Shown here: positions 2-5,225 of the stretch, in pieces
How positions within the stretch are numbered: position 1 is the first letter of the stretch
Layout of the letters: every line of letters starts with the position of its first letter
Assembly: GCA_011364965.1 (NCBI GenBank)
Contig: RDOB01000003.1
Coordinates: forward strand, 567,822 to 631,821
DNA length: 64,000 nt
DNA from: Candidatus Heimdallarchaeota archaeon
GTDB taxonomy: Archaea > Asgardarchaeota > Heimdallarchaeia > Hodarchaeales > Hodarchaeaceae
Reading direction: 5' to 3'
The notes under the pieces: model-generated
Database searches by the model: none
Told to the model about the DNA's origin: nothing
The model's input: only the letters and a program-made list of their open reading frames with translations
Program-made: the position numbers and the translations under genes

Positions 2-709
2 TCACGAAGGTTTCATTCGGAGCTGTTTAAAGCGCTGTTGAACAGCGATCTGTATAGATAATATTTGAAAAGCCATTGAAATGTTCTCCCCTGTCCGTGC
101 ACTCGTTTCAATTAGATGGATTCCGAAACCATAGTTTTCTCGACTTTTTTTATCATATTTTCTAGTTAAATATTCAGCATATTGTCTTGGTACGAGGTTC
201 AATCCACTTTCTTTAAGATCTATCTTATTTGCAACTAATATTAAGGGGATTGGTCCTTTCATATTATGTTCCCATAGTTCTCCTATCCAGTTCTCTAAGT
301 TCTTAAAGGAGTCTCTATTGGTAATATCATAGATGAGCAATGCGCCATTGGTACCCTTATAAAATGTCTGTCGTACCTCAGAAAAATGTGGTTGCCCTGC
401 TAAATCCCATATCTGATATTTAATTTCCCTAGATCCCAAGTTTACCACATATGTTGAAAAATCTGCTCCTATTGTTGCTGAATAAACGGGATTAAATCCG
501 TGACCAATGAACCGTCGTCTTATCGAGGTTTTTCCCACAGCTCCATTTCCGATAAGGACTATTTTCCATAATGTCCTAGAGTCCTTTGGAAAAAGGAATT
601 CGACATCCAAATCAGTTTCAAAATCTGATGGTAAATTAGTAGTAACCCCGTTCAATAGTTCTCTTAAATTATCGCGGAATTCAAATTCATTTTCATTCTT
701 GTTGAACGT
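2..709 (-). CDS. Rab-like small GTPase (ORF track start 655 TTG; frame is open to 712, possible ACG start at 709)
   Basis: G1 GNGAVGKTS, switch I ATIGADF, G3 WDLAGQ, G4 NKID, G5 ETSA; no C-terminal Cys prenylation motif; GGAGG lies 7 nt before ACG 709. Confidence 0.9.
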   Translation of the reverse strand, partial: TFNKNENEFEFRDNLRELLNGVTTNLPSDFETDLDVEFLFPKDSRTLWKIVLIGNGAVGKTSIRRRFIGHGFNPVYSATIGADFSTYVVNLGSREIKYQIWDLAGQPHFSEVRQTFYKGTNGALLIYDITNRDSFKNLENWIGELWEHNMKGPIPLILVANKIDLKESGLNLVPRQYAEYLTRKYDKKSRENYGFGIHLIETSARTGENISMAFQILSIQIAVQQRFKQLRMKPS

Positions 710-712
710 ACT

Positions 713-2236
713 TTATCCTCCTTTAGAATTACCGTCTTGTGGATTCGTCTTCAGCTCTGGAAGAACAATAGAGAAAGTGGATCCTTTTTTATATTCACTC
801 TCAACATAGATTGCTCCTTTATGGAGATACACTAATTCACGAGCTAGTGCTAATCCAATTCCTGTTCCTTGAATGTGTGAAACATCATCTGATCTATAAA
901 ACCTCGTAAAAATGTGTGGAATATCCTTTTTTGAGATTCCCATCCCCTGATCAGTAATTTCAATTAATGTTTCCTTATTCTCTTCTCCAGAAGAATATTT
1001 TCCCTTATAAGACTCGGTGACCTTAATAGTTATATTAGAGTTATTCGAAGAATACTTAATGGCATTATCAAGTATGATTCGGAATATTTGTTCAATCCGA
1101 TGAACATCTCCCATTAATTCTACCTGTTCTGAGCCTAAGACTTGAACGTTAAGTTTTTTCTCATAAATTCGCGGTTCTAATTGAGCTATGACTGAATAAA
1201 TAGTCCCCAAGATATGGTACTTTTCCCATTTCAATTTTAAGCCTTTCCCAGCGTCGAAACGGGATAATATTAGTAGGTCATCCACCTGCTGATTTAATAT
1301 TGCTGCACTTCTCCCCATAGAATTAATTATCTCGATTTTTTCCTCCTCTGTAAGCTTCGTTCCATACCTTTGAAGGTTTATTACTGATAAATTCAACGCA
1401 GAGATAGGAGTTCTAAGTTCATGGGAAACAACAGATACAAACTTCTTTCGGAGATTTTCAAACTCGATAAATGGAGTAATATCCCTAAATTCAATAATAG
1501 AAACAAGAGAATTCTGGTTTATGGAAGAATTTAACGCGACTGTAAATTCTAGAAAGAGATTTGATGTTACTTCAACTACAACCTTTTGGTTAATGTCGTA
1601 AGTTAAGAAAAGTGTTCTAATGGTGTCAAAAAAGGGGTGACCTGTACTAAGTACGAAATTCAATTCACATACTCTTATTTCTGATAAGATTCTTTTGATT
1701 AGTCTTTCTGCTGCTGTATTGATGATAATAGCCTTTCCATCTTGATCTAATACAATTACTCCATCTTTTATATTATTAAGTATCAATTCAATCTGTTTTT
1801 TTTCTCGATTGACAATTTCGCTTTGTGATCTAAGATGATCAATTATTTCTTCTAAGTAATCGTGGCTTAAACCAATCTTATCTTCAAAATCTGTTGAGAA
1901 TGAAATTTGCTTCAATAGAAGAAATATGGAATTTAAATTAATGTACTTTGTTTTGAAATAGAACGAGATAATCTCTCCATTGTTTCTCAAGCAGCGTAAT
2001 ACACCCGTATTATGCATTTTTTCTGAATAAATTGGATATTTGTAAATATAGTCTAAGTCTAGGTTATAGATATATGCTGAAATATCTTTTCCAATCATCT
2101 CTTGTTCTGAATATTTTAATATATCTGTTAGATATATATTAACATATTGTATTTTATGCTCCTTGAGATAAATAATCCCCATATCTAAATTATTTAAGAT
2201 TTCTTGAAATCCTTCTGAATTCACCGTTTGATTCAT
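713..2236 (-). CDS. PAS-PAS sensor histidine kinase (HisKA + HATPase_c), soluble
   Basis: H-box SHELRTP, N-box QIFRIILDNAIKYS, G1 DQGMGI, F-box IFTRFYR, G2 GTGIGL; two PAS-like N-terminal segments. Confidence 0.95.
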   Translation of the reverse strand: MNQTVNSEGFQEILNNLDMGIIYLKEHKIQYVNIYLTDILKYSEQEMIGKDISAYIYNLDLDYIYKYPIYSEKMHNTGVLRCLRNNGEIISFYFKTKYINLNSIFLLLKQISFSTDFEDKIGLSHDYLEEIIDHLRSQSEIVNREKKQIELILNNIKDGVIVLDQDGKAIIINTAAERLIKRILSEIRVCELNFVLSTGHPFFDTIRTLFLTYDINQKVVVEVTSNLFLEFTVALNSSINQNSLVSIIEFRDITPFIEFENLRKKFVSVVSHELRTPISALNLSVINLQRYGTKLTEEEKIEIINSMGRSAAILNQQVDDLLILSRFDAGKGLKLKWEKYHILGTIYSVIAQLEPRIYEKKLNVQVLGSEQVELMGDVHRIEQIFRIILDNAIKYSSNNSNITIKVTESYKGKYSSGEENKETLIEITDQGMGISKKDIPHIFTRFYRSDDVSHIQGTGIGLALARELVYLHKGAIYVESEYKKGSTFSIVLPELKTNPQDGNSKGG

Positions 2237-2248
2237 GTATAGTTCCCC

Positions 2249-3637
2249 CTAAAACCGGATTTCCCAGGTTGTGTGCCGTTCTTCTTTATTGATAATTTTA
2301 GGTGATTCAATATGAAAGGTCTTTAGGATTCCTTCCAAAAAACCAGTGAGTAAAACATCAGTTAATTCACTGGGGATACCCTCATTTTTCCAATCTTGAA
2401 CAGTTAATTCAATTGATTGGCTCCTACGATTCATTATAAATGATTTTGATGTTAATTTTAGAGGTTTCGCGTTCCAGTCACCCTTCAGATAATTTAACCA
2501 AGATTTTTGTAATAATATAGCATATCCTGTTCCTAAAATACGTACTCCCTGTTGGATTGATGGGAGCATATTTGTAAAATCCTCCTGACTTGTTCCTAAA
2601 GTTGGTAGAATAGTAAATTGGGGGAGAATTACCTGTTCAAAATAATCCAATAACTCATCATTTAATAATTTCTGAAGCATTACATCTGGGAGCGAAAAAT
2701 AAATAGTTTGTAATAGAGCTATATTACTACTTTGGTCATTTACGCTTGTAAGGAAAAAAGTTGCGATTTTTAAATAATCTTTAAAGTGCTTTAACACTAT
2801 TTGTATATTTTTATTTAATTCAATTCGTTTTTCCGGATCATACTTGTGTAAAAAAATGGAAAGATTTACATTAGACTCATTTTCATTGCGTACCAATGAC
2901 CATAGCTTATCTAAGTAGTCTAGGGCTGGTAAGAAGGAAACAGGATCCTGTATATCTACAACATAAATTAAGGTTGAGGTTTTTCCCCAATAAGTCATGT
3001 CTTTTAGATATTGACGTCGATAAAGTTCTTGTCCTCCAAAATCCAATATTAAGATATTCTCTTTTAGGAATTCTTCGAAATCTATGTGCTGAACAACTCC
3101 TATGGTTGGCTTAATTGTATGCAAACGATCTTTCGATTCCTTTTTAAAGAATAATTGAATCATAGACGTTTTTCCGGCTCTAGATAATCCTAGAAGAGCT
3201 ATTCTTATGACAGGTTTTTTCATGGATTGAGAAAGCTGAAATTCTTGATTTTTTCGAGTTAATGGACTCAGAATTGGTAAAATTAGTTTTTCAAACATTT
3301 CAGATTCTGGAAAATAGCCTTTGTCTTGGTCTTTCAACAATTGAAATGTTTCTTTAGCAATTAAATCGAAGTATCTCTCTACTTCTTCGGTTTGTATTTT
3401 TTCTTTTAGAAATAAATATAATCCGAAGGTTCTATATGTCCTTACATAGATAATTAAGTCAGAAAACCTAATTTCTTGAATTGCACTTTGAATTACTGCC
3501 TCTGAAAAATTTTGTATCGCAACCATAAATCCAGAGATCAGCTGAGGATCCTGTAAAGTATATTTTGAGCTTTCTTCAGAATAACTCCATACTTCTATCC
3601 CTGCATCCGTAGAGATAGCAAATCTTACAAACATCAT
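2249..3637 (-). CDS. Longin-like domain + Rag/Arf-like small GTPase + putative V4R/Bet3-like C-terminal domain
   Basis: N-terminal DPQLISGFMVAIQNFS (longin-like); GLSRAGKTSM, PTIG, DFGGQ, LIYVVD, HKYD, FFLTSVND; C-terminal LLTGFLEGIL. Confidence 0.8.
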   Translation of the reverse strand: MMFVRFAISTDAGIEVWSYSEESSKYTLQDPQLISGFMVAIQNFSEAVIQSAIQEIRFSDLIIYVRTYRTFGLYLFLKEKIQTEEVERYFDLIAKETFQLLKDQDKGYFPESEMFEKLILPILSPLTRKNQEFQLSQSMKKPVIRIALLGLSRAGKTSMIQLFFKKESKDRLHTIKPTIGVVQHIDFEEFLKENILILDFGGQELYRRQYLKDMTYWGKTSTLIYVVDIQDPVSFLPALDYLDKLWSLVRNENESNVNLSIFLHKYDPEKRIELNKNIQIVLKHFKDYLKIATFFLTSVNDQSSNIALLQTIYFSLPDVMLQKLLNDELLDYFEQVILPQFTILPTLGTSQEDFTNMLPSIQQGVRILGTGYAILLQKSWLNYLKGDWNAKPLKLTSKSFIMNRRSQSIELTVQDWKNEGIPSELTDVLLTGFLEGILKTFHIESPKIINKEERHTTWEIRF

Positions 3638-3646
3638 ACTTCCTTT

Positions 3647-4528
3647 CTATTGTGATTCAATGGTTAGAATATCTGATATTTTCTCCCAATATGAGGATAT
3701 ATTCCAATTCTTTCCAGTTTTTATCAGACCAGAGATGGTCTCAAGTATTTCTTTCACCCTTAAAGACATTAAATAATTAATTTTTGTTGCTAGAGTAACC
3801 AACATAAATTGTCTTTCTCCTCCTCTTACAGAATCATCAGGAATCGAATCAAAATAGAGATATCCATCTTTTTCAATATTATAGATTCTTAATAAAACAC
3901 TCTGAGATTCATAATATTTTGAATGTCCATAGATTGAGACTGTTGTTTGGAACAGTTGAACACCTATTTCCTCGAGGTCAAAATCATCAACTGTATTAGG
4001 ATAGTAATTCTGAATTTTCGGGCCAAAATTTTCATCCCATAATACATAAAATAAAATTACATCATTTTTTTGCTGAATTTTATAATCATTCTTAATTTCA
4101 AGAGATTCTAAAACTGAATTTCTGATTCTCTCACTCATTTTTCTGTATTTTAATCCTTTAGCTATTTTTCCTTTTATTGTTGCAAGTAGATCTTCCTCCT
4201 CAAATGGTTTTATTATATAGTCATCTATCCCGAGAGTTTTAGCAAATCGAACGTCAGCAGGTGAACTTTTTGCAGTCAAGAAAATGAAAGGGATAAGGTT
4301 CCAATCTGGATTGTTAGAAACTTCTTGAAGAAAGTCATAACCATTCATCTCTGGCATCATGATATCGCTAAGGATTAAATCAGGGGGATTTGAGAGATTA
4401 TCTAATATTTCTAAAGCTTCTTTTCCATTTGAGCCTGTATAAACTTTATATCCATTGCATGTCAGAAAAATCCTCATATTTAACATGATTTCTTGATTAT
4501 CTTCAACAACAAGGATTGTATTTGACAA
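3647..4528 (-). CDS. Response regulator receiver fused to a longin/uDENN-like domain
   Basis: VVEDN, PDLILSD55IMMP, FLTAK, KPF; C-terminal WDENFGPKIQNYYP and DDSVRGGERQFML. Confidence 0.9.
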   Translation of the reverse strand: MSNTILVVEDNQEIMLNMRIFLTCNGYKVYTGSNGKEALEILDNLSNPPDLILSDIMMPEMNGYDFLQEVSNNPDWNLIPFIFLTAKSSPADVRFAKTLGIDDYIIKPFEEEDLLATIKGKIAKGLKYRKMSERIRNSVLESLEIKNDYKIQQKNDVILFYVLWDENFGPKIQNYYPNTVDDFDLEEIGVQLFQTTVSIYGHSKYYESQSVLLRIYNIEKDGYLYFDSIPDDSVRGGERQFMLVTLATKINYLMSLRVKEILETISGLIKTGKNWNISSYWEKISDILTIESQ

Positions 4529-4770: not shown

Positions 4771-5225
4771 ACCCGAACATTGAAAATCCTCGTTTGGAAC
4801 TTTTTGCTGCTTTTTGTAAACATTTCATTGGAACTCTAATATTAGTTTTCAGAAGACAAAAGAAGTAGTTATTTTTTCTTTTTTCATTATATGTTCAATT
4901 TATGTTGGTTATAGGTAATACCCAGTAAACTAAAAATAACTCTAATATAGAACCTTCAATCCTAAACTACCTCAATAATTTCAAGAATTCTTTAAATAAT
5001 CAAACTTTCTTAATTGATAGAGTTAATCCATTATCTGTTAAAAAGATTAGGCCCCTTGGTTGGATTAGAAAAAATCCATCTATTCTTGTTAAATTATTTT
5101 GAAACATCAGAAATTACGTCAAAAATGTAAAGATTGGATCTTGAACTAGGAAAAATACTTTTCATAAAATATAAAGCACAATTATAATTAATAAACTACA
5201 GAAAAATGATTGGTGGAGAGCTGTC

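Follow-up and report, generated by a model that had tools for sequence, protein, structure and literature searches.

The locus described here raises the question of what an Asgard archaeal protein that carries a longin domain, a Rag-type GTPase domain and a V4R-type tail in one chain does, and which of the genes around it supplies its partner. The window analysed is a 64,000-nucleotide stretch of a Candidatus Heimdallarchaeota genome, and the gene occupies 2249..3637 on its minus strand and encodes 462 aa. A preliminary description of this sequence had assigned a longin-like domain, a Rag-like G domain and a V4R/TRAPP-Bet3 fold to the open reading frame (ORF), and had proposed that the protein might act as a TRAPP-like guanine nucleotide exchange factor (GEF) on a Rab encoded two genes downstream. 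All three domain assignments stand after testing, and the quoted motifs are all found in the 462-aa chain: GLSRAGKTSM (150-159), DFGGQ (199-203), LIYVVD (223-228), HKYD (264-267) and FFLTSVND (294-301) in the G domain, and GTGYA (369-373) and LLTGFLEGIL (429-438) in the tail. The sequence of 2249-3637(-) has 0 differences from contigs of a second study (run X13). Approximately 60 full-length Asgard homologues are conserved across all three domains at roughly 25-72% identity, so the gene is real, and a chance or shadow ORF was rejected. No RNA data set was listed as carrying it, which bears on its expression in neither direction. The homologues are labelled mostly Hodarchaeales and otherwise Heimdall, Odin or Thor, and their spread is patchy (12/400 genomes of the phylum and 8/21 in the genus). 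This genome encodes one copy, and tandem paralogues are found in other genomes. Translation probably starts at the second ATG (3634), a position that agrees with the N-termini of homologues. Three family copies are broken inside the G domain by a frameshift or assembly error (L106:7933-9321, L107:3946-5415 and L112:9326-10524); two of these are from the same genome, where intact paralogues are present.

The middle domain (aa 143-315; 2693..3211, minus strand) is a Rag/Gtr-family G domain by Pfam, PDB sequence matches, fold search and phylogeny. Pfam ranks Gtr1_RagA (2.2e-17; 63.7 bits, cut-off 22) above Arf (1.7e-13) and Ras (1.5e-6). The closest solved structures by sequence are LokiRagM, LokiRagO and RagC, and the closest by fold are LokiRagO (Z 21.3) and RagD (Z 19.3), with the best Arf-like chain at 17.3. 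In a tree of Asgard G domains only, the three-domain family forms a single clade (100/95) nested in a broader assemblage of V4R-tailed Rag-type GTPases (94/96), and this Rag-type group is separate from RasL and ArfR at 100/95. The phylogeny suggested in the preliminary description, run here with these Asgard sequences, places the family among the Asgard HKxD GTPases, apart from RasL and ArfR. An Arf or Rab identity was rejected, and the earlier view that the G-motifs are more Rag/Gtr-like than Rab-like is confirmed. G1 is intact, switch-I Thr178 is invariant, and both G3 Gln203 and an HKxD G4 are present; across the family, HKxD is found in 61/61 members and the G3 Gln in 60/61. With HKxD, the G3 Gln and Thr178 retained, the domain is very probably an active GTPase.

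The N-terminal domain (aa 1-127; 3257..3637, minus strand) is a longin of the non-GAP (GTPase-activating protein) type, as judged from AlphaFold topology, weak Pfam matches and a motif tally. Residues 3-126 of the model follow the longin order beta-beta-alpha-beta-beta-beta-alpha-alpha, which agrees with the longin-like call made earlier; whole-model fold searches were filled by G-domain matches, and the fold assignment comes from this topology together with weak Pfam matches to Fuz_longin_1 (5/57 members, best 1.3e-4) and Intu_longin_1 (2/57). These families correspond to the LD1 domains of Mon1/Fuz and Ccz1/Intu, which are Rab-GEF longins. The Atlas score for a longin-labelled feature is 0.87 (below 0.9, a lead only), and no significant PDB sequence match was found for this domain. 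A GP motif is absent from the first 30 aa in all 57 members, and no conserved Arg was found in the beta4-beta5 loop (Gly in 35/57, Arg in 3/57). Lacking both the GP motif and a conserved loop Arg, this domain is predicted to be a non-catalytic, partner-type longin.

The C-terminal domain (aa 316-462; 2252..2692, minus strand) belongs to the V4R/H-NOX/TRAPP superfamily by fold and profile comparison, and at 147 aa is longer than the ~130 aa given previously. Modelled alone (pLDDT 85), it has the order helix-helix-strand-strand-helix-strand-strand. The top eight rows of a fold search (VIA) are all from this superfamily (Z 5.7-7.0, rmsd 3.3-4.7, 94-118 aligned), and include Bet3 (Z 7.0, rmsd 4.0, 113 aligned), BcsD (6.6), DmpR (6.5), PoxR (6.4) and H-NOX (6.2); Thor TRAPPC3 scores Z 5.5. 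These Z scores are moderate, and Bet3 is tied with DmpR, PoxR and H-NOX. Pfam and PDB sequence searches with the tail gave nothing significant (Pfam TRAPP in 1/61 members, E 0.064), Foldseek gave no match at E<=0.001, and the Atlas V4R score is 0.77 (below 0.9, a lead only). Profile comparison connects the tail with the Cys-bearing tails of more distant Rag proteins (hhalign 98.4%, E 4e-15), and the profile of those tails finds both the 462-aa gene (E 4e-6) and V4R proteins that lack any GTPase domain. The Cys-bearing sister Rag-V4R tails keep three cysteines, and 6/21 members match MetOD1, which archaeal response regulators use as a V4R/HNOB-like output domain (PMC5847659). By comparison, aa 316-462 contain no cysteine, and none is conserved across 61 family members. 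On the fold matches and this sequence bridge to Cys-bearing V4R/MetOD1 tails, the domain is assigned as a degenerate member of the V4R type in which the cysteines have been lost. The superfamily fold proposed earlier therefore holds, and the tail is not of an unrelated fold; a Bet3-specific identity is not supported, since Bet3 ties with V4R sensors in Z and the sequence relatives lead to V4R/MetOD1. A roadblock tail was rejected, on the order of elements in the model, the V4R/TRAPP/H-NOX fold matches and the profile link to Cys-bearing V4R tails. A related architecture is encoded at L131:929-1825, a longin-like plus V4R fusion without a GTPase (V4R 6.7e-12) that resembles the Heimdall longin-TRAPPC3 protein of PMC10933270.

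The 462-aa gene is part of a tight, co-oriented run on the minus strand, in the order receiver-longin, Rag fusion, PAS kinase and RasL, and all four products are apparently soluble. The upstream gene (3647..4528) lies 9 nt from the Rag fusion and encodes a predicted regulator, a response regulator with a receiver (aa 5-118) and a GAP-type longin (aa 157-289). In this longin, W164-D165, G169-P170 and R235 are invariant across 27 receiver fusions, and the W and R are invariant in 28 longin domains of this type. The receiver-longin profile matches the C9orf72 longin weakly (131 aa, E 0.017) with WD..GP in register, and there is a weak Folliculin match; the receiver-longin also aligns with a Folliculin-positive longin, with the Arg in register. 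WD/GP/Arg motifs are reported for the GAP longins FLCN, NPRL2, SMCR8 and C9orf72, and for some Asgard longins (PMC12290439). The upstream protein thus carries a GAP-type signature (GP plus loop Arg) and is predicted to be a GAP. The longin of the Rag fusion does not align with that of the receiver protein (hhalign 0.9%), consistent with different longin types. A cytoplasmic PAS-HisKA-HATPase histidine kinase of 507 aa (713..2236) begins 12 nt downstream of the Rag fusion gene. Beyond it, two genes downstream as described, is the Rab-like small GTPase (2..709), which has no C-terminal Cys and is classed as an Asgard RasL rather than a Rab. Its ORF call begins at TTG 655 and its homologues are 236-240 aa; a start at ACG 709 behind GGAGG (~235 aa) would fit this length. 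The kinase and RasL are in one frame across 656-721, with a single TAA between them.

The whole operon is bracketed by a 62-nt direct repeat (4827-4888 of the window and L001:12128-12189; 94% identity, spacing 7,699 nt). The left copy, 2.8 kb to the left of the window, overlaps a surface-protein gene at its 3' end, an arrangement suggestive of an integrated block. No joint between the two repeats (an empty site) was listed in four runs, from a listing that skips repeats. Just left of the window, inside the block, a 504-aa ORF with winged-helix/Lrp-like repeats by eye (L001:13516-15030) is convergent with RasL and overlaps its 3' end.

Linkage of these genes is conserved across loci. Of 14 distinct family loci, 10 have an HMM-detected GAP-type longin no more than 8 kb away, one has a probable copy and one has a copy recognised at the motif level, and the two loci without one are on short or truncated contigs. 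A histidine kinase is within 8 kb in 10/14 loci and RasL in 12/14; most of these loci are from one genus and so are not independent. As background, 1.8%, 4.9% and 21.6% of the bases of this genome are within 8 kb of a GAP-type longin, a kinase and a RasL, respectively. The strongest context signal is the upstream receiver-longin with its WD/GP/Arg GAP-longin signature, together with the histidine kinases. The order receiver-longin, Rag fusion, kinase and RasL is repeated in two other metagenomes, and shuffled versions are found elsewhere, often with tandem paralogues of the Rag fusion. The GAP-type longin is adjacent even without a nearby kinase in L110 and L112. GAP-type longins are also found in 17/78 other Asgard Rag-like loci among the matches listed; at 15 of these 17, the operon combines a stand-alone Rag with a receiver-longin and, in most cases, a membrane kinase. 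These operons encode a 180-aa Rag-type GTPase, a membrane PAS histidine kinase and a receiver-GAP-longin, and are widespread and mostly Lokiarchaeial (L027, L031-L033, L038, L039, L042-L044, L053, L058, L060, L072, L073 and L078). MASE3 was present in all five of their kinases that were scanned, and L073 has no kinase. They offer a simpler system for the same client question. At L074:11145-12557 and L080:8961-10373, a Folliculin-like longin (GP plus Arg) is N-terminal to a Rag G domain, forming a GAP-GTPase fusion; the L074 longin is of the same type as the receiver-longin (Arg aligned, E 1.3e-4; Folliculin 4.6e-5). Two more GP plus Arg longin proteins are encoded in this genome (G000; C9:188925-190874 and C12:26955-28283), and no small GTPase was detected within 4 kb of either. 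Separately, Arf-type GTPases of ~470 aa with, by eye, a longin-like front and a GAF-like tail (L002:9723-11150, L101:15458-16894 and L118:3863-5281) are convergent with a GAF kinase and receiver pair, and recur in larger family clusters beside an SMC/ScpB operon.

These observations point to a Rag-type switch and, encoded next to it, a folliculin/NPRL2-like GAP longin that is under phosphorelay control and turns the switch off, a reading that in our judgement has an even chance of being correct. In this scheme, the 462-aa protein would itself act as the switch: an active GTPase of the Rag family, connected to a two-component phosphorelay of prokaryotic type. The receiver-longin protein would receive its phosphate from the PAS histidine kinase, with phospho-control inferred to run from the relay to the GAP, and the folliculin/NPRL2/SMCR8-type longin of that protein would pair with the GTPase protein, most likely through its N-terminal longin. 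The latter would be the docking half, in the role of FNIP, NPRL3 or C9orf72 in eukaryotes. The R235 arginine finger would then enter the G domain and promote GTP hydrolysis. The V4R-type tail would take the place of the roadblock tail of eukaryotic Rags and, because its ancestral cysteines are lost, is probably a dimerisation or ligand/effector module and not a zinc sensor or TRAPP catalytic subunit. When the 462-aa protein was co-folded with GTP, Mg and the longin of the regulator, the score was 0.49, compared with 0.00 for the best of three controls; at least 48% of contacts are shared between runs, the partner has a pLDDT of at least 78 and no interface is given. Of the solved complexes, 58/80 reach the mark, as do 2/110 mismatches, and those that do so with scores of at most 0.60 are 7/80 solved complexes and both mismatches, so 0.49 is weak support for physical pairing. 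Resemblance to solved structures of FLCN/GATOR1-Rag or of longin dimers may also account for the pass. In favour of the Rag-GAP model are the intact Rag G domain, the GAP motifs, the linkage, its recurrence, the L074 fusion and the weak co-fold.

Counting against a Rag client, GAP-type longins are also fused to other GTPases: to RasL at L108:12001-12963, and to ArfR at L035:10205-13066 and L079:9027-11861, where one chain beside Rag genes combines an ArfR GTPase, a GAP-type longin, PAS and HATPase. The operon's RasL could therefore be the client. The longin of the 462-aa protein and the receiver-longin would then form a C9orf72-SMCR8-like GAP platform for RasL, with the Rag domain gating assembly as a form of GTPase crosstalk, an arrangement that we consider unlikely. 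RasL is often the immediate neighbour of the Rag fusion gene, yet its high background (21.6%) tempers its presence in 12/14 loci, and in the G-domain tree the RasL proteins encoded beside the various family loci do not form one close subfamily. The L108 fusion and RasL-kinase fusions in L117 and L102, in the opposite order to this operon, are consistent with a RasL client, as is the weak co-fold; however, L110 and L111 have the GAP longin without RasL, and 14 of the 15 stand-alone Rag plus receiver-longin operons among the matches listed also lack it. Another arrangement, which we regard as rather improbable, would place the 462-aa protein on the input side, where its V4R-type domain would bind a ligand or dimerise and set the nucleotide state, and the GTP form would control the kinase, upstream of the phosphorelay. 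The tail has fold matches to the ligand sensors DmpR, PoxR and H-NOX, and its relatives match MetOD1, a two-component output domain (PMC5847659), but the V4R-site cysteines are lost in the three-domain family. The kinase exceeds its background in these loci (10/14 versus 4.9%) and bacterial small GTPases are linked to kinases (PMC4316618), but the GAP longin is kept at some loci without a kinase, and the kinase-GTPase fusions observed carry RasL or ArfR, not a Rag domain. Such a sensor is compatible with the Rag-GAP model, and the two could coexist as a feedback loop.

The proposal of the preliminary description, that the longin and Bet3-like domains act together in one chain as a TRAPP-like GEF on the Rab-like GTPase encoded downstream, in a Rag-to-Rab cascade, is not borne out, and we consider it very unlikely. 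Exchange by TRAPP requires a longin heterodimer with Bet3 and Trs31, and the extended Bet3 C-terminus enters the Rab switch-I region (PMC10152722, PMC3747258); in this family, the chain ends 4-5 residues past the last-strand Trp in 52/61 members. The idea is poorly supported because the tail lacks both the cysteines and this extension. Bet3 is the top structural row and a Heimdall longin-TRAPPC3 fusion is known (PMC10933270), but the Bet3 match is tied with V4R sensors. Similarly, the weak matches of the N-terminal longin are to Rab-GEF longins, but the other longin of the operon bears a GAP, not a GEF, signature. RasL frequently adjoins, against which stand its background and the lack of a close RasL subfamily. 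The earlier reading also left out the more specific neighbour, the receiver-fused GAP-type longin with its two-component context.

If the Rag-GAP model is true, the FLCN/GATOR1-Rag pairing would be older than eukaryotes and would have been run by two-component phosphorylation before TOR. We tentatively propose, with somewhat less than even confidence, that in Hodarchaeales-type Asgard archaea a histidine kinase-receiver relay controls a folliculin/GATOR1-type Arg-finger GAP acting on a Rag that carries the partner longin. On the same reading, and just as provisionally, the operon would be a form of the eukaryotic Rag nutrient switch that predates TOR and consists of four genes, with Rag as a client of Asgard GP/Arg longins. 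Whether Rag or ArfR is the client of these longins has been posed as a question (PMC12290439), and GTPases are difficult to match to GAPs or GEFs, since those of MK-D1 are generally encoded outside operons of this kind (PMC10933270). The value of this locus is a concrete, assayable candidate Rag-GAP pairing: a small four-protein set, from the archaea closest to eukaryotes, for direct assay of the client GTPase of longin regulators. The three-domain fusion alone is more modest, being another case of Asgard GTPase domain shuffling.

Several parts of this system are already published, namely longin-Rag and longin-TRAPPC3 fusions (PMC10933270), a receiver-NPRL2-like longin (Liu et al., bioRxiv 10.1101/2020.10.19.343400) and Asgard GP/Arg longins (PMC12290439); in a literature search of incomplete coverage, neither the three-domain fusion nor its pairing with a receiver-longin was found. 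The closest relatives are Rag/Gtr GTPases (eukaryotic RagA-D and Gtr1/2; Asgard LokiRagO 8yl2 and LokiRagM 8zla, 9m28), which share the HKxD G4 and give the best matches. Unlike canonical Rags, the 462-aa protein has a V4R-type tail instead of a C-terminal roadblock, plus an N-terminal longin. Eukaryotic Rags are an obligate dimer of two paralogues; in the three-domain family, this genome has one copy and other genomes have tandem paralogues. The longin-Rag fusions of MK-D1 and the Heimdall longin-TRAPPC3 protein MBD3190748.1 use the same parts fused pairwise (PMC10933270); here all three are in one chain, the tail is cysteine-less and a candidate regulator is encoded in the operon. The upstream longin shares WD, GP and the invariant Arg with FLCN:FNIP, GATOR1 (NPRL2:NPRL3), C9orf72:SMCR8 and the Asgard GP/Arg-finger longins. 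In contrast to the longin GAP complexes, it is fused to a receiver, has no DENN part and is a predicted GAP with a proposed Rag client, and the partner longin would be part of the GTPase chain. The same receiver-longin fusion is seen in the Asgard NPRL2-like longin fused to two-component domains of Liu et al., who proposed that Asgard growth control centres on two-component systems; the parts of that preprint available to us describe no specific Rag pairing and no three-domain protein (bioRxiv 10.1101/2020.10.19.343400). The TRAPP core (Bet3/TRAPPC3, Bet5, Trs23 and Trs31), a Rab GEF, has longin and Bet3-superfamily folds in common with the 462-aa protein, which differs in lacking the Bet3 C-terminal extension, the Cys and a dedicated GEF-type longin pair, and in a tail nearer in sequence to V4R/MetOD1. 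Myxococcus MglA/MglB with RomR and the actinobacterial conservons (PMC4316618) likewise couple a small GTPase and a roadblock/longin-class regulator to receiver or kinase proteins, but MglA systems use a different GTPase family, and the arginine is supplied by MglA itself.
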